Assembly: GCA_964508925.1 (NCBI GenBank)
Contig: CAZDVM010000008.1
Coordinates: 97,774 to 161,773 of the forward strand
Reading direction: 5' to 3'
Length of the DNA: 64,000 nucleotides
From: an uncultured Pirellulales bacterium
GTDB lineage: Bacteria > Planctomycetota > Phycisphaerae > Sedimentisphaerales > Anaerobacaceae
Part shown: positions 35,365 to 45,478 of the stretch, piece by piece
Layout of the letters: each line of letters opens with the position of its first letter
Numbering within the stretch: the stretch's first letter is position 1
Program-made: the position numbers and the translations under genes
Notes under the pieces: generated by a model
What the model was told of the DNA's origin: nothing
The model's database searches: none
Seen by the model: the letters and a program-made list of their open reading frames with translations, nothing else

Positions 35365-36597
35365 TTATTTTACTTCGACAACCGAATTGTATTCGCCGAA
35401 GGGGTTTACTTCTTTTGTTTCGTTGTATGGGTCCTGCTGCCATTTGCCGTCAACTACTATCCTGTAGCGGTGCTTTCCTTTAGGTATTTTCACCTTAGCC
35501 TGCCAGATTCCGCTTTCGCCGACTTTCTTCATGGGGGTTTTTTCGGGCTGCCAGCCGTTGAAGTCACCTGCGATCTGAACTTTTTCAGCCCGCGGGTACA
35601 AACTTACGAATGCCACGGCATCTTTCATGCAGGTGACGCCGTAATAATCGGAAAGCTTTTCATCCAGCGAACTTTTCTGTTCTGTTTTTTCCTGCTGTTT
35701 TGTCGCAGTTGCGGTTTGCTGTTTGGTTTTATTTTCCGGCTGAACTTTGCTGATAATCTCATCAGCGGTCATACTTATCTTTGTCAGCCTGTCATCCATT
35801 TGATTGACTTTTTCGTCCCTGCTGTCGATAACCTGTGAATTCAGTAATTCTTCTGCAAGGGAATTGAAATCCATTCTTCCCCTGCTGCCGGGGTCGTATT
35901 CGCAGATGGGCTGGCCGAAACTGCTTGCTTCCTTGATCTTGGTGTTGAAATTGATAACCGTAGTGAACATCTTATCGGTAAAGTGATTTCTCAGTTCTGC
36001 GAGAATTTCTCTTGCCATTTTGGTTCTTACATCATACATGCTGGCAAGTACTTGGACGTTTACGTCCTGGTTGGATCTTTCGGTAATGATATTCAAGGTC
36101 TCAAGCTGTTTGCTCAAACCATGCAGAGCAAAATAGCCGGTTTCCACCGGAACGATAACTTCCGAAGATGCCTTCAATGCGTTGAAGGTCAAAAGGCTTA
36201 CAGCCGGGGGACAGTCTATAACGACATAGTCGTATTTATCGCGTACTTTTTCGAGTTCTTCCTTTAAGGTGTATTCCCTTCCGACAACGCCGCTCATCTG
36301 CTGTTCGAATGCAGACAGATCGATACTGCTGGGGGCCAATTCGAGATTATCGGTTATCTGCCAGAGAATTTCTGACAATTCGGTTTTTTCGTTTCGGCTT
36401 TTGCTGATCATAACATCGTAAATGCTCTGATCGATCTGGTCTTCGGGCACTGCCAGACCAACGGCGCAATGTGATTGCGGGTCCATATCGACAAGCAGTG
36501 TTTTCTGGCCTAGTTCTGCAAGTGCACTTGCCAGGTTAATTGAAACGGTGGTTTTTCCGCAACCACCCTTTTGGTTAATGACTGCGATCGTTCTCAT
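35365..36597 (-). CDS. ParA/MinD-family ATPase fused to C-terminal CBM48 (AMPK-beta-like glycogen-binding) domain
   Basis: 410 aa. N-term MRTIAVINQKGGCGKTT (deviant Walker A) ...LLVDMDPQ... full ParA core to ~aa 250. Low-complexity Q/T/K linker. C-term ...VQIAGDFNGWQPEKTPMKKVGESGIWQAKVKIPKGKHRYRIVVDGKWQQDPYNE matches the CBM48/AMPK1_CBM consensus (GSFNNW...G.H.YKF.VDG.W..DP). Confidence 0.8.
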   Translation of the reverse strand: MRTIAVINQKGGCGKTTVSINLASALAELGQKTLLVDMDPQSHCAVGLAVPEDQIDQSIYDVMISKSRNEKTELSEILWQITDNLELAPSSIDLSAFEQQMSGVVGREYTLKEELEKVRDKYDYVVIDCPPAVSLLTFNALKASSEVIVPVETGYFALHGLSKQLETLNIITERSNQDVNVQVLASMYDVRTKMAREILAELRNHFTDKMFTTVINFNTKIKEASSFGQPICEYDPGSRGRMDFNSLAEELLNSQVIDSRDEKVNQMDDRLTKISMTADEIISKVQPENKTKQQTATATKQQEKTEQKSSLDEKLSDYYGVTCMKDAVAFVSLYPRAEKVQIAGDFNGWQPEKTPMKKVGESGIWQAKVKIPKGKHRYRIVVDGKWQQDPYNETKEVNPFGEYNSVVEVK

Positions 36598-36982
36598 TGT
36601 TTCTGAACAACCCCCTATCTGAATCCATTCTTTAAACCATAATCCATTATATTCTCTATAAGTATAAAAATACCTATAGTAATTCTTTCGGCCAGTTTTA
36701 CTTTAAAACTTTACAATTTTATGGGACGAGCCGATAAAAAACCCCGATATTAATACTAAAATCGGGATTTTCGAGTGTTTTCCAATATGAAAAAGTAGTG
36801 TAAAAATCTTCATGGCAAGGTTTTACGGCACTTTGAGATATCCTGAACTTTTCAGCAAAAAATATTAAATTTTTTTGAATTTTTATAAAGATTGCTGTTA
36901 TTAATGCCATGAAAACCAAAAACCGCTGGTTTTTAGCTGGCGGTCCCAGGTGATTTTCAGTATTTCTGAAAGCTGAAAATTC

Positions 36983-37342
36983 TTATTTTTTCAGCTTAGC
37001 GATCAATTCTTCGATCTTTTTATGGTTTTCAGGCGTAGTTCTAACAAATACCTGCCCATCATTTTTAATTTGATAAATTCTATGTGGAGACTTCGGTTTC
37101 CGTTTCAGTCTCGATGTCTCCCAATCCTCGGGTATCATGGTTTGGATGAGTTTTGGTAAATTCCTGTTTGTTTCTTCATCGTTTATAAAACAATAGGTTT
37201 TAACCTTGAAATCCGCATTTTCATAGGGTGTTGATCTTTCAGGCTCATCGGATTTATACTCTTTTCTACTAGAAACGCAAATACAGCCTGAAGGAGTTAA
37301 AGTTACCAATACTAAAAGACTCACCAATATTCTCTTTTTCAT
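36983..37342 (-). CDS. Small secreted/lipoprotein (119 aa)
   Basis: Signal peptide with lipobox-like TPSGC. 9-bp stem hairpin plus downstream terminator-like structure at 36905-36982. Confidence 0.5.
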   Translation of the reverse strand: MKKRILVSLLVLVTLTPSGCICVSSRKEYKSDEPERSTPYENADFKVKTYCFINDEETNRNLPKLIQTMIPEDWETSRLKRKPKSPHRIYQIKNDGQVFVRTTPENHKKIEELIAKLKK

Positions 37343-37354
37343 ATTTTTCCCTTT

Positions 37355-37555
37355 TCATTTTCTTAATTCAGTGATTAATTCTTCTATTTTTTTATGATCC
37401 CCGGCTGGATTTTCAACATTAACATCACTTAAAAGCTGCTTGTAATAAATACTGTGGAAACCTGGCTGGCCATTCCAATTTTCAATTATAACAGTATGGA
37501 TGAAATTTAATAAATTCCTGTTTATCAAGCCTTTCATATTTTCTCCCCTTAACAA
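37355..37555 (-). CDS. Small ORF (66 aa) paralogous to the C-terminus of the adjacent lipoprotein
   Basis: C-terminal ...NPAGDHKKIEELITELRK versus neighbour ...TPENHKKIEELIAKLKK. Likely a partial tandem duplication. Coding status uncertain. Confidence 0.3.
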   Translation of the reverse strand: MLRGENMKGLINRNLLNFIHTVIIENWNGQPGFHSIYYKQLLSDVNVENPAGDHKKIEELITELRK

Positions 37556-37692
37556 AAATACCTTCTATTTAATATGACGTGAAAGCGGGAAAAATTGTAC
37601 AAAAAACTTTAAATTTTATTAAAAAAAGGAATGCACCACCTTATTGAAAGATGATGAATTCCTGGAGGATGGTATTTGTTCTTTTCAGTTAA

Positions 37693-38154
37693 TTACTTCG
37701 ATCCTTTGATCTGGATCTTTTTGGTCTTAGTTTCGGCTGCTTTCGGCATAGTTATCTGGAGCAGACCGTCTTTATACTCTGCCTCTATCTTGTCTCTGTC
37801 AACTTCGCTGGGCAGAGTTACATCTCTTCTGAATTTTCCGAAAGACCTCTCCATTCTGTAACAGCCTTCCTTTTCATATTCTTTTTCCCTTTTCTTTTCA
37901 CCGCTGATGGTCAATACATCGCCGTGAATTGAAAGATCAATGTCGTCGGCCTTGCAGCCCGGAACTTCAGCATTTACAATGATATTGTCTTCTTCTTCGA
38001 CCATATCCAGACTTGGCCAGGTCATTGTTGTTTCAGTAGCGGTTGTTCTGGAAGGCCACCTGCCGAAAAATGAGCCGAAAAGATCATCAACTTCATTCTG
38101 CAGCCTCTCAAGTTCGTTTCTAATTCCTCCTCTTCTTAATTGAATGTTAGCCAT
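37693..38154 (-). CDS. Hsp20/alpha-crystallin family small heat-shock protein
   Basis: MANIQLRRGG...WPSLDMVEEEDNIIVNAEVPG...LTISGEKK...FGKFRRDVTLP. Perfect AGGAGG RBS 8 nt upstream of the ATG at 38154. The ORF-track N-terminal extension was rejected. Confidence 0.9.
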   Translation of the reverse strand: MANIQLRRGGIRNELERLQNEVDDLFGSFFGRWPSRTTATETTMTWPSLDMVEEEDNIIVNAEVPGCKADDIDLSIHGDVLTISGEKKREKEYEKEGCYRMERSFGKFRRDVTLPSEVDRDKIEAEYKDGLLQITMPKAAETKTKKIQIKGSK

Positions 38155-38440
38155 AGTTAAACCTCCTTTTATAAATTCCCGTTTAATTAATTCATTTCTT
38201 TTATTAACCTCTATTTTAAAGTTTGCAAATGCTGTGCCAATCGGGTAAATCCCCGAAATCTGCCTTTTTTTACCCTTAACAGCATATGGGGCTGTCAAAA
38301 TGACGCCCTTTAACTTGAAACTGTTGTAAAAATGGCAGGTAATAAAAAATTTTAAAAAATACTTTCAACTGAAATTATTTTTGTTATAATATTTTTTGTT
38401 GAATAAATTTGAACTGATACTACTTTTTTAAATAAAGAAT

Positions 38441-38998
38441 ATGATAAGAAACGAACCGGAAAAAAACAGAAATAACGCTGCTGATTTAAAAGGAGCTGCT
38501 GAAGATACTAAATTTTTCAGGAACCACAGCTTCAGGATATTAAGCAGTCTGCGTAAAATAACGCATTCAGTGGCCATATATTCAAAAAAACTGAAAAAAA
38601 TATATGGTATAACAGGGCCTCAGCTGCTCTGTCTGTATGCTATTGAAGAAAACGGGCCCACCACTTTGACCGAGATCAGCAAACTTATCAGCTTAAGCAG
38701 CAGTACAATACTGGGCATAGTGGACAGACTGGAAAAGAAAGACCTTGTAGAAAGAAGAAGAGATTCAAAAGACAGGAGAAAAGTATTTATCACCACAACC
38801 TCAAAAGGGAGCGAATTTGCACTCAATGCTCCCATGCTGCTTGAAGATAAGGTAGCGGAAGGGATTCTGAAAAAAGACGAAAAAGATCAGGCTGCGATCG
38901 CATGGTCGTTAGAGCAGATCGTTACGCTCATGGATGAAAACTGTTTTTCAGACATAAGTAAATCGGAAATTGAATCTTTTGAAAAAAATATAAGATAA
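38441..38998 (+). CDS. MarR-family transcriptional regulator
   Basis: ITGPQLLCLYAIEENGPTTLTEISKLISLSSSTILGIVDRLEKKDLVERRRDSKDRRKV: winged HTH of MarR. Its end lies 58 nt upstream of ablA. Confidence 0.85.
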   Translation: MIRNEPEKNRNNAADLKGAAEDTKFFRNHSFRILSSLRKITHSVAIYSKKLKKIYGITGPQLLCLYAIEENGPTTLTEISKLISLSSSTILGIVDRLEKKDLVERRRDSKDRRKVFITTTSKGSEFALNAPMLLEDKVAEGILKKDEKDQAAIAWSLEQIVTLMDENCFSDISKSEIESFEKNIR

Positions 38999-39057
38999 GA
39001 ATTTCTGAAAGATTAAAACTGCGTTCAACTTTATTAACTCATTAGAGGGTTATAATT

Positions 39058-40368
39058 ATGATAAAAGTGCTTAAAGACAAAAAAATGAAAGTTAAAGAAG
39101 CTATTTCCATTGATAAAGATATTTTCAAATGGGAAGACTGGAGATGGCAGCTGAAACATTCTATCAAAAGCATCGAGACATTCGAGGAGCTGCTTGGTAT
39201 CCAGTTCAGGGAAGACATACGTGAAGAGATCGAAAAGACCGTGGAGAAGTTCCCTTTAAGCATTACTCCGTACTACCTTTCATTAATAGATACAGACGAT
39301 ATTAAGAACGATCCTATATTCAAACAGGCCTTCCCTTCCCCTCATGAAATGGACGATCACAAATGTGACATGTCCGACCCGCTTGCAGAAGATAAGGACA
39401 GCCCGGTGGAAGGGATCACTCACAGGTATCCTGACAGGGTGCTTTTCCTTGTAAGTAATGTCTGTTCAATGTACTGCAGACACTGTACTAGAAAAAGAAG
39501 GGTTGGCGACGTCGATTTCGTGCCGGACAAGAAAACTATCTTAAAAGGGATCAAATACATAAAGGATCATCCGGAGGTACGTGACGTGCTGCTTTCGGGC
39601 GGAGATCCGTTTTTGCTATCAAATGAATACCTGGACTGGATTTTGAGCGAACTTGCAGAGATCGAACATCTGGAGGTTATAAGGATCGGCACGAGAACGC
39701 CGGTAGTTCTGCCTCAGAGGATAACGGATGAACTGGTGGATGTTCTCAGGAAATACCAGCCGATCTGGATAAATACACATTTCAACCATCCCAGGGAAAT
39801 AACTAAATCCTCCAGAAAAGCCGTAAAAAAACTTGCAGATGCAGGTATCCCGCTGGGTAATCAGTCGGTACTTCTTGCGGGTGTCAACGACTGCCCGCGG
39901 ATAATGAAGGCCCTGGTACATAAGCTTGTCGAAAACAGGATCAGGCCTTACTATCTGTATCAGTGTGACCTTTCAGAGGGATTGACGCATTTCAGAACGC
40001 CCGTCGGAAAAGGTATCGAAATAATAGAAAATCTCATCGGCCATACTTCCGGATTTTGCGTCCCCAGATATGTAATAGATGCTCCGGGCGGAGGCGGAAA
40101 AATTCCGGTAATGCCGAATTACCTGATATCATGGTCAACGAATAAAGTTGTACTGAGGAATTACGAAGGTGTCATTACCACCTATAAAGAGCCTGATTCG
40201 TATGAGCCTATCTTCTGCGACAGGAAATGCGGCGACTGCAAACTGCAATTAAAAACAGATGACGCCGAAGAGCAAAAGGCCACGGGTATCTGTAAACTTC
40301 TCAACGATTACGATAAGGATATATCACTGACGCCTTCGGAAAATGAACGTCACTCAAGAAGGAAATAG
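39058..40368 (+). CDS. ablA: L-lysine 2,3-aminomutase (radical SAM, KamA/AblA)
   Basis: [12 protein letters not shown] (CX3CX2C radical-SAM cluster of the KamA family). Whole-length KamA similarity ([27 protein letters not shown]). Confidence 0.85.
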
Positions 40369-40370
40369 TT

Positions 40371-41819
40371 ATGGCTGTAATTGACTATATCCTCTTCGGT
40401 CTGTATATGGCAGGTGTCCTCGGGATCGGATACTACCATTTCCTGAGAAACGAGGACAGGGAAGATTATTACGTCGGCAGCAGATCCATCAAGGCTCACC
40501 ACGTAGGTTTATCCATAGTCGCCACCGACGTAGGGGGCGGCTTTTCCATAGGTCTGGGCGGACTTGGGTTCGTGATGGGACTTGCGGGAAGTTGGCTTTT
40601 GTTTACCGGCCTTATAGGTGCCTGGCTGACTGCCGTGATAGTAATACCGAGGATCAAGAAATTCGACAGAAAACATAAGATGTTCACCTATCCGGATTTT
40701 TTAAGGTTCAGATATAATGAGAAAGTGGCCCTTGCAGCTGCCCTGATATCCGGGCTGGGATATATGGGATTTACAGGAGCACAGGTTCTGGCAGGTGCCA
40801 AACTGGCATCGGCTACCCTGATAACCAAGGCTCCTTTCGGTCTTACTCCCCTTGAATTTTCCATCTATATAATCGCCTGTATAACTCTTGTTTACACAGT
40901 GATCGGGGGTTTGAAGGCGGTCATATATACTGATACCGCACAATGGGCGATTCTTTTAACCGGTCTGATATTTGTTACTATACCGGTGACTCTTTTTAAA
41001 CTGGGAGGTATCTCCAGACTGAAAGAGGCACTGCCTTCGAATTACTTTGACCTGACCAACATAACCGCAACCCAGTTTATAAACTGGATGGTGACTATTA
41101 TACCTATCTGGCTGATAGGAATGACACTTTACCAGCGAATGTACGCCTGCAAGAACGAAGAGGAGGCCAAAAAGGCCTGGTACATCGCCGGTCTGTTCGA
41201 GTACCCGGTAATGGCTTTCACCGGCGTTTTTCTTGGGATGTGTGCAAAGGTGCTTATCCCGGAGGCGGAGTCGGAAATGGCAATGCCCATGCTGATATCA
41301 CGGATGCTGCCCATAGGAGTGACGGGGATTGTTATCGCATCTTATTTTTCGGCTATAATGTCAACCGCAGACAGTTGCCTTATGGCATCATCGGGCAACC
41401 TGGTCAACGACGTACTTCACAGGTATATATTCAAGAACAATTCTGACAAGCAGCTGATGTTCTTATCACAGATAGTAACACTTATCATCGGCATAGTCGC
41501 CATCGTGATCGCAAGTGAATTTAAAAAGGTGCTCGATGCCATATTATATGCCTACGCCTTCATGGTTTCAGGGTTGTTCATACCGACACTGGGTGCATAT
41601 CTGTGGAAAAAGGCGAGCTCGACCGGGGCTTTATTGAGCATGATAGCTGGTGGAAGTCTGACATTGACCCTGCAGATAAAGCCCGAACTCCTGCCGGAAA
41701 AATTAAGTAAGACAGGTTTAGATGCCACGGTCTACGGCATTTTGATCTCACTGATCATATTTATAAGTTGTTCCTATATATTTCCCGATAAAGAAAAGAC
41801 GAATCATTATGACATTTGA
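40371..41819 (+). CDS. Sodium:solute symporter family (SSF) transporter
   Basis: 482 aa, ~13 TM helices. SSF-like N-terminal Y..GR...........GG motif region. Inserted between ablA and ablB. Confidence 0.75.
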
Positions 41820-42648
41820 CAAGATAGAAAAGATCGGAAGTTCACTGATACAGCACGGCGAGATGAACAGCAGGATTTACCTGATGAAACTCCATCATGA
41901 GGATTTTCCCGATATTGTCGAAAACATAGATAAGCTGTCCGAAAAAAACAACTATACAAAGATATTCGTCAAGATTCCCGCCGAATTCGAGAAAAAATTC
42001 GAGAAGTTCGGTTATCAGCGGGAAGCCTGTATACCGAAATTCTTCAACGGCAGAAAAGATGCCGTCTTCATGGGTAAGTATTTCAGCGAACACAGGAAAA
42101 ACGATAAAAATCTCGAAATAATTAAAACAAACCTGAAACTGGCTGAGGAAAAAAGGAAAACTCCGGCAAGCAGTGACATCCCGGAAGGTTTCGAGTTCTC
42201 GAAATTGAGTTCTGACAGTGTCGATGAAGCTGCTCAATTGTACAAGGATATCTTCACCAAATATCCTTTTCCCATCTTCGACCCGGTTTACCTGCACAAT
42301 ACCATGGAAAGTCACGTCGATTATTTTTGCGTGCGGGACAAAGGTAAGATGATCGCACTTGCATCGGCTGAAAAGGATGAGGAACACCAAAATGTAGAGA
42401 TGACGGATTTTGCTACCATACCAGAATATCGAGGCAGAGGCCTTGCTTCAGCACTTTTAAAGAAAATGGAAGAGGAAATGAAAGATCAGGGTATGAAAAC
42501 CGCCTATACCATCGCAAGGGCCTTGTCTGCGGGAATGAATATCACCTTTGCAAGGGCAGGCTATGAATTTGCGGGAACATTGATAAACAACACCAACATA
42601 TATTCAGGCCTTGAGAGCATGAACGTGTGGTACAAGCCGCTTAAATAG
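41809..42648 (+). CDS. ablB: Putative beta-lysine N6-acetyltransferase (GNAT)
   Basis: 279 aa, the length class of AblB. C-terminal GNAT motif [19 protein letters not shown]. Positioned in an abl operon. Overlaps the SSF gene by 11 nt. Confidence 0.6.
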
Positions 42649-42666
42649 GCGATACGGCAACACATG

Positions 42667-43929
42667 TCACTTTATTTTTAAGATTTCGTCCCAGCGGGTG
42701 GTGTATCTTGCCGAACGGTGCATTGCCTTCATCTGCCATAGCTGATCCGTACCCTGGGCGGCGAATCTGAGCTGGGAGAAGGGAAAGTCCCGGTTTATCC
42801 GGTCTATTGTTTTCATCAGTTTTTTCGATCTGCTGCGGCTTACGGTATTAAAGAAATTTTCCTGGATATTATCTTCATTTACCAGGCCGGTGAGCATAAG
42901 GCCGGATTTTTTGAATTCCTGCCCCTGCCGGTAGAGTTTTTTCACTATTTTGCGAGCACTTTCAATGAGCTCGGGCGTATTCTGCGTCGGTGTCAGAAAC
43001 TTCACAGTGGCGGAATTATAATAGCTCTGATCGGAATCGAAACGGTTTGTCATCACGAAAACGGTCATGCAGGAGGCGGCCTTTTTTTCTTCTCTTAACT
43101 TTTCGCCCGCCCTTGCTGCATACTGGCTGGTTGCCTCCATGAGTTCATCGAGATCAGTCACCGGCCTGCCGAAGCCGCGCGAACAGGTGATCCCCTTTTT
43201 TGCAGGGGGATTGGACTCCAGGGGATAGCAGCTTATGCCGCGAAGTTCGTAAACGGTTCTTACTCCTACCACGCCGAATGTTTTCCTTACCCTTTCGGCG
43301 TCGGCATCCCGCAGCTGTTTTGCATTTTGGATCCCTATCTTTCTTAGTTTTTTGGCTGTTCTGCGTGCTACCCCCCAGATATCTTCAAGTTCGATCTTTT
43401 CAAGGGCCTTATTGAGATAGAGGGAGTCGCTGAGATCGAGAACGCCGCCTGCTTTCTTGGATTTTTTGGCTATCTTGTTTGCAGCCTTGGCAAGTATCTT
43501 CGTAGGTGCTATACCGACTGAAACCGGGATTCCCATCCACTGCTTGACGGTCGCTTTCATTTCCCTGCAGTACTTTGTCAAATCCGCGGGGATGCCGCTT
43601 AAGTCCAGAAAAGCCTCGTCTATAGAGTAAACTTCGATCTCGGGAGTAAATTCAGCCAGCGTCTGCATTACCCTTGAGGACATGTCGGCATAAAGGGCAT
43701 AGTTTGAAGAATAAACTTCCACATGATGTTTTTCAAGCTGATCTTTGACCTTGAAATACGGAATGCCCATGGGTATGCCGATGGCTTTGGCCTCATTGGA
43801 TCGGGCTACCACACAACCATCGTTATTGGAAAGTACCACCACCGGCTTGTTGTTTAAGTGCGGGTCGAAAACCCTTTCACACGAGACGTAAAAATTGTTG
43901 CAGTCTACTAGTGCAAAAATCTTTTTCAT
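42667..43929 (-). CDS. umuC: Error-prone translesion DNA polymerase V subunit UmuC (Y-family)
   Basis: [19 protein letters not shown]...[19 protein letters not shown]: Y-family polymerase N-terminus. 420 aa. Confidence 0.9.
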
Positions 43930-44366
43930 AGCTGATGAATTACGTAAGTTACAACGCCCCAGACCTCGAATTCCATGGACTCATCCAGTTCCTGTGTCTG
44001 GAAATCCTCGTTTTCCGGTTCCAGATAATATTTCCCTTTGATTATACGGATTCGCTTGACAGTGAGTTCCCCGTTAATATTGGCGATAACCACTTTTTTA
44101 TTGCGAGGTTCAACGGATCTGTCAACAACCAGCAAATCGCCTGAATGAATGCCGGCACCCAGCATGGAATCACCGGTGACACGTACAAAATATGTGGCGG
44201 CGGGATTTTTGATCAGGTACTTGTTTAAATCCAGCTTTTCTTCTTCGTAATCCGATGCCGGTGAAGGAAAACCGGCAGAGACATTAGCCACATACAACGG
44301 CTGTTTGCTGTCGGTTGACCAGTCCGGCTTGAATATGTTTTTTATCTTTATTCCCATGCCCGGCAT
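43926..44366 (-). CDS. umuD: UmuD-like S24 peptidase (translesion synthesis accessory protein)
   Basis: VSAGFPSPA...[25 protein letters not shown]...[11 protein letters not shown]. Overlaps umuC by 4 nt. The true start may be the ATG at 44357 (MGIKIK), which sits 7 nt downstream of a TGTTATAAT extended -10, giving a leaderless configuration. Confidence 0.85.
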
Positions 44367-44428: not shown

Positions 44429-45478
44429 TCAGGTGTCAATGTCGTAGCCGTATTTTTCCACAGCCTGTTTCTTGATAAATTCCATGAGCACTGGATAATG
44501 TTTTTCGATATTAATCATCTCAATTTCCTGGTCTGTGCCGGTTTGCTTGCGGATAGCATCGGTTATCTTACCTGTTTCCCAGACATTGGGGCTGACTTCA
44601 TGGGTCATTTCAAAACCGTATTTATCCAGTGCGGTCAGAACCGGAACAGGATATGATATGGGCTCCGGATTCCCGCAGCCTTCTACATTCGGCATAAGTG
44701 TCGCTGTTATGTACCCGTCATCCAGTCCTATATCCATATTCCTTTTTTTAGTATCCACATGCAGCAGACCGCTGTACCATTTACCCCTCATCTTTTCGGT
44801 GGCCTGTATTGCCGTTTTTTTCGATACCCCTCCAAGCTTTTCCAGTTCTTTATCTATAGCCTCGGTCATTGCCTGATCATAATCCTCTCCTGAGCGCATT
44901 GCCTTGAGGCCTAGTCTTACACCGACCAGATTAGAGAAATTGTCTTCCCATGAAAATGCGGAATTGAATTCCGGCTCGAAGGCAGCAAATTTGGTACCGA
45001 ACCAGGTAATTATCTCGTGCCATAAAGTGGAATTGAAGGCAATATAAGGAGCCGCCTCGAAGGCGATCTCGTCGGCAATCTTTTCTCTTTGCTGTTTACC
45101 CATCTGCTTCCAGTTTGCAGGATAATCGAAACTTATATAATGAGTCGAAGGTTCCCAGGTCAGGTTATAATGAAATCCCTGCTCGTTTTCCAGCAAGGTC
45201 TCGCATATCCTTTCTATAAAATACCTGGTATAGTCAGCGTTCCATCTTACGTGAGTCAGATCAATATGTCCCCCTTTGCAAGTATAAACTTGAGCATTTT
45301 TTTCAAACAGGTCGAAATGATAAGAATGTTTTCCAATGTTGTCAGGGTCGACATATCGCGGGCCCGGCGGCGGCGTAGGCAGGGTTCCCATTCTCGGTCT
45401 CGGTGCTTTGATATTACATCCTGCTGCAAAGATCAACAAACACCCTCCAACTGCTGAAATTATTTCTCCTTTACTCAA
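44429..45478 (-). CDS. Hypothetical lipoprotein
   Basis: Signal peptide with lipobox (FAAGC). 349 aa. Family uncertain. The Cheo-like palindrome lies 47 nt upstream. Confidence 0.5.
   Translation of the reverse strand: MSKGEIISAVGGCLLIFAAGCNIKAPRPRMGTLPTPPPGPRYVDPDNIGKHSYHFDLFEKNAQVYTCKGGHIDLTHVRWNADYTRYFIERICETLLENEQGFHYNLTWEPSTHYISFDYPANWKQMGKQQREKIADEIAFEAAPYIAFNSTLWHEIITWFGTKFAAFEPEFNSAFSWEDNFSNLVGVRLGLKAMRSGEDYDQAMTEAIDKELEKLGGVSKKTAIQATEKMRGKWYSGLLHVDTKKRNMDIGLDDGYITATLMPNVEGCGNPEPISYPVPVLTALDKYGFEMTHEVSPNVWETGKITDAIRKQTGTDQEIEMINIEKHYPVLMEFIKKQAVEKYGYDIDT

Follow-up and report, generated by a model that had tools for sequence, protein, structure and literature searches.

A sodium:solute symporter encoded within bacterial ablA-ablB operons, a candidate transporter for the Nε-acetyl-β-lysine pathway

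Why should the gene for a sodium:solute symporter stand between the two biosynthetic genes for the compatible solute Nε-acetyl-β-lysine (NeABL)? The question is posed by a 64,000-nucleotide (nt) stretch of DNA from an uncultured Pirellulales bacterium (GenBank assembly GCA_964508925.1, contig CAZDVM010000008.1, positions 97,774 to 161,773), which we call the window. A six-frame listing of open reading frames (ORFs) confirms the original prediction of four genes in the order marR, ablA, symporter, ablB, with the coordinates given there and all on the + strand. The operon begins with marR (38441-38998, 185 residues), which encodes a MarR-family winged-helix regulator. The ablA gene (39058-40368, 436 residues) encodes a predicted radical-SAM, pyridoxal phosphate (PLP)-dependent L-lysine 2,3-aminomutase, which would turn lysine into β-lysine, and ablB (41809-42648, 279 residues) a predicted β-lysine Nε-acetyltransferase, composed of a GNAT domain and an AblB-specific N-terminal domain. 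Between these two lies a 1449-nt gene (40371-41819, 482 residues) for a sodium:solute symporter of the SSF (SSF/SSS) family, from a subfamily linked to abl genes, so that ablA and ablB are not directly adjacent as in loci of the methanogen type. Judged by the comparison of genomes described below, the symporter is not a local insertion but an ancestral, widespread part of the form that the abl cassette takes in diderm bacteria.

Both enzymes can be assigned to specific families. The ablA product scores 780.3 bits against the AblA equivalog model TIGR03820 (cutoff 525.4) and stays below the cutoffs of rival KamA-family equivalogs, namely EpmB (253 against 369), AblA_like_2 (318 against 396), glutamate 2,3-aminomutase (472 against 650) and arginine 2,3-aminomutase (377 against 600). 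The KamA homologue is AblA, as had been predicted, rather than EpmB or a member of another clade. Its alignment with the solved lysine 2,3-aminomutase of C. subterminale (2A5H; 515 bits, 371 residues aligned) matches the cluster cysteines of the CxxxCxxC motif, C136, C140 and C143, with C125, C129 and C132, R145 with R134, and the PLP lysine K348 with K337. D304 and D341 fall on D293 and D330 of 2A5H, which are reported to hold the ε-ammonium group of lysine and to be replaced in glutamate 2,3-aminomutases (Lepore 2005; Ruzicka & Frey 2007). By its family score and its catalytic and specificity residues, AblA is predicted to be a lysine-specific 2,3-aminomutase.

The expectation that the 279-residue GNAT belongs to the AblB family is likewise borne out. 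It scores 351.8 bits against TIGR03827 (cutoff 205.1), with residues 12-278 covering profile positions 2-266 of 266; the GNAT domain (PF00583) lies at residues 143-234, and the acetyl-CoA motif RGRGLA (R/Q-x-x-G-x-G/A) can be read in the translation. Comparison with the structure database gave no close solved homologue, and by profile and motif the protein belongs to the AblB acetyltransferases. One gene caller gives AblB 254 residues (locus L001). The longer, overlapping start is supported because homologue alignments reach query residues 1-4 and the hidden Markov model covers residues 12-278. No genes for β-lysine catabolism (KamDE and the like) adjoin the cassette.

The junctions within the operon were read directly. 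The marR-ablA spacer, predicted at 58 nt, is 59 nt long, a trivial difference, and contains an AGAGGG ribosome-binding site. Only 2 nt separate ablA from the SSF gene, with GAAGGA inside the 3' end of ablA. The SSF gene and ablB overlap by exactly the 11 nt predicted (41809-41819, + strand): the ATG of ablB is at 41809 and the TGA of the SSF gene at 41817-41819, embedded in AblB codons 3-4 (TTT GAC), which encode the F-D of the conserved N-terminus M-x-F-D-K-I-E. This arrangement would serve as a translational-coupling junction. The ablA and ablB genes are co-directional, and the 2-nt gap before the SSF gene and the 11-nt overlap after it make their co-transcription likely.

Whether the symporter belongs to the pathway was addressed by scanning one genome per species, which gave at least 599 confirmed relatives of the SSF at 52-80% identity; the best 120 database matches are 67-80% identical. 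Architectures were counted with tblastn, using the window proteins, in the best 80 loci of these relatives, and abl genes were sought within 6 kb. About 50 of the 80 loci, from more than 10 phyla, have the order ablA-SSF-ablB on the same strand, so the original prediction's view of the symporter as a gene inserted at this locus in particular does not hold. A further seven loci have ablA-ablB-SSF, seven are interrupted by contig ends, and 16 have the SSF without AblA or AblB. Its recurrence in some 50 of 80 species-level genomes, drawn from many phyla, puts the order ablA-SSF-ablB far beyond chance.

The taxa that carry this SSF are mostly marine, hypersaline or sediment lineages, and mostly diderm. 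They include Sedimentisphaerales, Pirellulales, Kiritimatiellia, Lentisphaeria, Chlorobium, Calditrichia, Fibrobacteraceae, Marinimicrobia, Hydrogenedentota, KSB1, Krumholzibacteriia, Gemmatimonadota, Cyclobacteriaceae, Balneolaceae, Polyangia, Shewanella and Marinobacter nauticus. This single, highly conserved SSF subfamily lies within abl operons of Planctomycetota, Kiritimatiellia, Chlorobi, Bacteroidota, Calditrichota, Marinimicrobia, Gemmatimonadota and some Gammaproteobacteria. In Cyclobacteriaceae, Marinobacter and Krumholzibacteriia the aminomutase is a shorter KamA-family enzyme that passes the KamA subfamily model only. Chlorobium phaeovibrioides has an identical cassette (AblA 781 bits, AblB 327 bits), and NeABL accumulation has been reported from green sulfur bacteria (Triado-Margarit 2011, as cited in PMC9337991). 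One metagenome-assembled genome labelled ‘archaeon’ (GCA_035528795.1, locus L085) carries MarR-AblA-SSF-AblB beside TetR, OEP and RND efflux genes; its label is probably wrong, since OEP and RND genes are typical of diderm bacteria. As a separate observation, locus L013 (4903-5985) has an AblB variant (TIGR03827, 274 bits) with an N-terminal extension of about 90 residues; it lies upstream of the SSF gene, an Orr-like racemase gene is found downstream, and ablA is absent within 6 kb.

The connection between SSF and ablB goes beyond gene order. Where the two are unfused, about 30 of 46 junctions overlap, by 1-20 nt and most often as ATGA or ATGTTTGA; an SSF stop codon inside the conserved AblB codons TTT GAC (an ATG..TTTGA motif) occurs in the window and in several phyla. 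Six loci (L003, L006, L008, L015, L023 and L055) contain clean in-frame SSF::AblB fusions of 762-783 residues, in which only 0-20 residues separate the end of transmembrane segment (TM) 13 from the AblB N-terminus. Several of the best 120 SSF matches are proteins of 757-775 residues with both SSF and GNAT domains, and P0033, P0082, P0086 and P0095 are further fused database proteins. The fusions stand at separate places on a neighbour-joining tree of the transporters, a crude tree without support values. A seventh candidate (L061:6001-7704) was rejected as a clean fusion: in its 567-residue ORF, SSF residues ~20-446 run straight into the C-terminal half of AblB, which starts at query residue 142, and both TM13 and the AblB N-domain are missing. 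Deletion, decay to a pseudogene or faulty assembly may have produced it. Conserved synteny, overlapping or fused junctions and the polyphyletic origin of the fusions strongly support, on comparative grounds, a functional coupling of the symporter to the abl pathway.

What the transporter carries is less directly read from its sequence. It is a clear SSF protein (PF00474, 167.6 bits against a gathering score of 22.8), with 164.7 bits for TIGR00813 under that model's stricter cutoff of 184, and it lies below all specific NCBIfam equivalogs, the best being PutP (166 against 515), with PanF at 139 against 328. Solved structures align with it at 58-90 bits only. The alignment with vSGLT nevertheless places A51, V54, A328, S331 and T332 on the Na2-site residues A62, I65, A361, S364 and S365, and these positions, the TM2 carbonyl positions and the Ser/Thr pair of TM9, are invariant across the subfamily, as is an MSTADSC motif. 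The Na2 site is intact. At three other vSGLT positions, N64, Q69 and E88, which we take to be sugar-binding, the SSF has D53, F58 and L76. The orthologue of Limihaloglobus sulfuriphilus (AQQ71551.1, L088:5001-6470) is labelled ‘Na(+)/glucose symporter’, and other orthologues are labelled generically. Because these sugar-binding positions of vSGLT are not conserved in the subfamily, the name is unsupported and probably a misannotation. Counting TM segments by Kyte-Doolittle hydropathy gave a fragmented, ambiguous picture. A topology of 13 TM with the N-terminus outside and the C-terminus inside, as in PutP and SiaT, is predicted from homology to 13-TM SSFs, from the loop at 96-118 with its nine K/R residues, and from the alignment, which stops before vSGLT TM14. 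With the C-terminus inside, the GNAT part of a fusion protein would be placed in the cytoplasm.

The 16 loci without abl genes bear on the substrate as well. In nine of them a GNAT of about 145-158 residues lies directly beside the SSF. We considered whether it was a truncated AblB and rejected this, as BLASTP gives E = 0.95 and the two proteins are unrelated beyond the fold; the search of the PDB gave no informative relative. In two loci (L031:4205-7443 and L039:4235-7455) a KamA-family aminomutase is followed by a GNAT of about 150 residues and then by an SSF of the same subfamily. That aminomutase is below all NCBIfam equivalogs (AblA 369 against 525; AblA_like_2 353 against 396), and the set is a non-orthologous aminomutase-GNAT-SSF cassette that may make a different N-acetyl-β-amino acid. 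In Flavobacterium (L077:6001-11259, L078, L083) and Omnitrophota (L038:5995-9076), the SSF is followed by the small GNAT and an M20 amidohydrolase (TIGR01891; DoeB2-like below threshold, 201 against 550). In the Flavobacterium loci, an alanine-racemase-like (Alr) and an Orr-like racemase come after the M20 gene. None of these clusters contains an aminomutase; they look like systems for acetylation, deacetylation and racemisation of a diamino acid. The SSFs of loci without abl genes are interspersed with the abl-linked ones on the neighbour-joining tree, which suggests one substrate class for all, an (acetylated) diamino or β-amino acid.

The gene neighbourhood also offers indications of regulation and of a role in osmotic balance. 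A homologue of MarR (PF01047, 60.9 bits against 24.6; no NCBIfam equivalog above cutoff) immediately precedes the aminomutase gene, in the same orientation, in 26 related loci and also in L085 and L088. Taken on gene order, MarR is a conserved regulator of the cassette. In Sedimentisphaerales, a gene for an MscS mechanosensitive channel lies between ablA and the SSF gene (L003:5081-6001, L004, L005, L088:4100-5014); L. sulfuriphilus, a cultured organism with a complete genome, has MarR-AblA-MscS-SSF-AblB with gaps of at most 10 nt or overlaps. The window cassette has no MscS gene in its 2-nt ablA-SSF gap.

Divergent from marR, as the original prediction said, lies hsp20, a small heat-shock protein gene (37693-38154, - strand; PF00011, 85.7 bits). 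Its true start is likely the ATG at 38154, with GGAGG upstream, rather than a TTG at 38298, which leaves an hsp20/marR intergenic region of about 286 nt that is AT-rich. The module once proposed to include hsp20 stands as far as the coupling of SSF and pathway goes, given the synteny, overlaps and fusions; the Hsp20 part falls away, as tblastn found a homologue near the cassette in only one of the 80 loci (L004), and there in another position. The divergent promoter region may nevertheless serve to co-regulate marR and hsp20 in this genome.

About 50 nt upstream of the marR ATG, a candidate regulatory region (38355-38390, + strand) comprises the imperfect palindrome AAAAATACTTTCA-AC-TGAAATTATTTTT (38355-38382; inverted repeat I5, 13-nt arms, 92% complementary) and, abutting it, an extended -10-like TGTTATAAT (38382-38390) read by hand, both in AT-rich sequence. 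Promoter-like hexamers on the minus strand, facing hsp20, overlap the palindrome (38413 to 38386 and 38402 to 38374). Together the palindrome and TGTTATAAT are a candidate MarR operator and promoter. The window palindrome has no motif in common with other lineages. A different palindrome, GTTCTATAGAAC (variants TTCTGTAGAAC and TTCTACAGAAC), occurs in the 335-424-nt marR-aminomutase spacers of Cyclobacteriaceae, Balneolaceae and Reichenbachiella cassettes (L062, L067, L070, L071, L072, L082), where it is likely a MarR operator. Riboswitch control of the kind known from Dehalobacter ablA was considered and rejected, as positions 36500-43500 contain no Rfam match at E <= 1.

We hypothesize, with confidence a little better than even, that the four genes form an osmolyte operon with a Na+-coupled recapture or scavenging SSF, a docked AblB and autoregulation by MarR. 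AblA would convert L-lysine to β-lysine, and AblB would use acetyl-CoA to acetylate its ε-amine, giving the zwitterionic osmolyte NeABL. The SSF would be a Na+-coupled importer dedicated to a solute of the pathway, most likely recapturing or scavenging NeABL, or its precursor β-lysine, from the periplasm and the surroundings. By analogy this role would most likely be comparable to those of OpuE for proline and TeaABC for ectoine. Through the overlapping stop and start codons the SSF would be translated in lock-step with AblB, and AblB is probably held at the membrane by the SSF C-terminus on the cytoplasmic side, much as it is in the SSF::AblB fusions. From the AT-rich divergent promoter region, MarR would control its own operon. 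Osmotic induction would be expected by comparison with methanogens, in which ablAB is salt-induced and essential for NeABL synthesis (Pfluger 2003, as described in the literature citing it). We favour recapture; it fits both the co-encoded MscS, as a release valve, and the mostly diderm lineages that carry the cassette.

Several considerations weigh against this hypothesis. The acidic residues D53 and D334 of the SSF would fit NeABL and β-lysine alike, and the sequence does not discriminate between the two as substrate. A fusion of enzyme and transporter would be more intuitive if the SSF delivered β-lysine, the substrate of AblB, than if it delivered the AblB product. The GNAT, M20 and racemase partners found elsewhere may point to a broader substrate class that includes lysine, ornithine and their N-acetyl derivatives. 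When loci were sought with AblB as anchor, Petroclostridium, a Clostridiales metagenome-assembled genome and Desulfonatronovibrio were found to have ablA and ablB without the SSF. The abl genes of Firmicutes, Desulfonatronovibrio and methanogens function without such a transporter. The AblB-like yodP-kamA system of B. subtilis is not known as an osmostress system, so the presence of AblA and AblB is no guarantee of an osmolyte role. Finally, the promoter and operator assignments in this AT-rich DNA do not rise above background, as counts of consensus promoters and terminators equal those of shuffled sequence (11 against 10.7 and 8 against 5.4, respectively).

Some of these points are met by the main rival explanation, which we consider rather unlikely. 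Here the SSF would import L-lysine or β-lysine, and a docked AblB or small GNAT would acetylate the side-chain amine on entry, so that a cation becomes a retained zwitterionic osmolyte and uptake and synthesis form one vectorial process. The fusions and the invariance of the GNAT are better explained in this way than by recapture: the constant partner of the SSF is an N-acetyltransferase, be it AblB or a non-orthologous small GNAT, the fusions are polyphyletic with very short linkers, and translational coupling is specific to ablB, not ablA. The Flavobacterium and Omnitrophota sets of SSF, GNAT, deacetylase-like M20 and Orr- or Alr-like racemases would also suit free diamino acids. However, import of β-lysine calls for an unusual external substrate, as free β-lysine is not known as an abundant environmental solute, and with import of lysine AblA would act between import and AblB, so that the AblB fusion would gain nothing. 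Characterised SSFs mostly carry zwitterions, anions and neutral solutes rather than dibasic amino acids. A related proposal, which we put forward as unlikely but worth stating, is that SSF and GNAT form a membrane ‘transport-acetylation’ unit in which the Na+-driven carrier hands an imported diamino or β-amino acid (β-lysine or lysine) straight to the docked or fused GNAT, which would cancel the charge of the side chain and so retain the compound as an osmolyte. If true, this would amount to a group-translocation-like accumulation of compatible solutes, reused with non-orthologous GNATs in different phyla.

Two further explanations rank below recapture and precursor import. Physical contact between the two proteins, implied by the fusions and the translational coupling, could also mean that the SSF is a transceptor. 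As such it would respond mainly to Na+, osmolarity or a solute outside the cell and set AblB activity through direct contact, for example to shut synthesis down when solute is available outside, in a manner resembling the SLC5-like domains on sensor kinases. Among the same relatives, identity is indeed higher for the SSF (about 70%) than for AblB (about 50%). We nevertheless judge a transceptor role very improbable: the Na2 site and the transporter architecture are fully conserved, as in an active carrier, there is no sequence sign of a loss of transport, and control of a GNAT by an SSF has no precedent. It is improbable, too, that the pathway is non-osmotic, serving nitrogen or carbon storage, supply of a secondary-metabolite precursor or lysine catabolism, with an SSF that imports an unrelated nutrient. 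B. subtilis yodP-kamA, which is sporulation-linked rather than salt-linked, and the 14 of 80 loci that have the SSF but no abl genes within 6 kb would fit such a role. Against it stand the MscS gene inside the operon of close relatives, the predominantly marine, hypersaline and sediment taxa, the lack of adjacent KamDE-type genes, and the report of NeABL in green sulfur bacteria, carriers of the same cassette (via PMC9337991). In addition, a hitch-hiking gene would not show synteny, overlaps and fusions conserved to this degree.

Downstream of the cassette, umuC and umuD (42667-44366, - strand; NF002955, 459 bits against 431, and NF007621, 165 bits against 110) are convergent with ablB, and the facing stop codons are only 18 nt apart; this gap contains no convincing terminator, and the convergent transcripts may overlap. 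A DUF4056 gene (44429-45478) lies beyond them. On the other side, positions 35365-36597 (- strand) encode a 410-residue ParA/MinD-like ATPase (CbiA/AAA_31) whose C-terminal domain is of the glycogen-binding CBM48/AMPK1_CBM type. The two are rarely combined, and the protein might anchor a ParA-type system on glycogen granules. Two small adjoining ORFs (36983-37342 and 37355-37555, both on the - strand) have a common C-terminal motif (..HKKIEELIAKLKK and ..HKKIEELITELRK, respectively). The larger, 36983-37342, has at its start a lipoprotein-like signal with a terminal Cys, and the smaller may be its degenerate duplicate.

Returning to the hypothesis of an osmolyte operon with a recapturing SSF, the bacterial side of the NeABL pathway is little studied, and this SSF subfamily is a concrete, testable candidate for its transporter. 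The cassette suggests that many anaerobic sediment bacteria combine osmolyte synthesis, release through MscS and uptake in a single unit. Natural transporter-GNAT fusions are unusual and, if their action is vectorial, would represent a new mode of solute accumulation. The assignment also puts right labels that are generic or mistaken, ‘Na+/glucose symporter’ among them. The literature we searched describes neither a transporter within abl loci nor a transporter for NeABL, with a mention possible in a paper on green sulfur bacteria (PMID 21371089). The ablAB genes and their product are already well known, and the SSF-bearing form is a widespread, apparently undescribed variant. The window locus is one example of it, from an organism nearest to Sedimentisphaerales. 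The outcome is thus a testable functional assignment for a large transporter subfamily and no paradigm shift.

How does this variant compare with known systems? The archaeal abl operon is described as two adjacent genes without a transporter. In Methanosarcina mazei and Methanococcus maripaludis (Pfluger 2003), the same two enzymes are encoded co-directionally in one operon. Its product is the compatible solute NeABL, which is predicted for the window operon as well. The window differs in having an SSF gene between the two, coupled to ablB, and marR in the lead; relatives add MscS. Transporter-free ablAB loci occur in bacteria too (Pelobacter carbinolicus Pcar_1401/1402, Clostridia, Desulfonatronovibrio). 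They have orthologues of both enzymes, with AblB at about 50-54% identity, but no SSF gene, and their order is often ablB-ablA. In Dehalobacter, Na+ and c-di-AMP riboswitches lie upstream of ablA (PMC9337991); there control is by riboswitch, whereas the window has MarR and no Rfam match.

In B. subtilis, yodP-kamA is an operon for a KamA-type aminomutase and an AblB-like GNAT. Close to it lies an M20-type deacetylase-like gene, which is reminiscent of the GNAT and M20 partners in the SSF loci without abl genes. Overexpression of yodP-kamA reportedly led to NeABL production (Mueller et al. 2011). That operon has no SSF and is sporulation-linked, in contrast to the MarR-led window cassette, which is MscS-associated in relatives.

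Among transporters, vSGLT, SiaT and PutP are LeuT-fold SSFs, and the window SSF keeps their Na2 site and resembles PutP and SiaT in length and TM count. It differs from all three as a distinct subfamily, with the sugar-binding positions of vSGLT replaced and scores below the PutP and PanF cutoffs. The closest functional parallels would be OpuE of B. subtilis, of the same SSF superfamily, and TeaABC of Halomonas elongata, which recapture self-made proline and ectoine, respectively. If the analogy holds, the difference is one of organisation: the genes for OpuE and TeaABC stand away from those for biosynthesis, and neither transporter is fused to an enzyme, whereas the window SSF is encoded within the operon of the pathway that it would serve.

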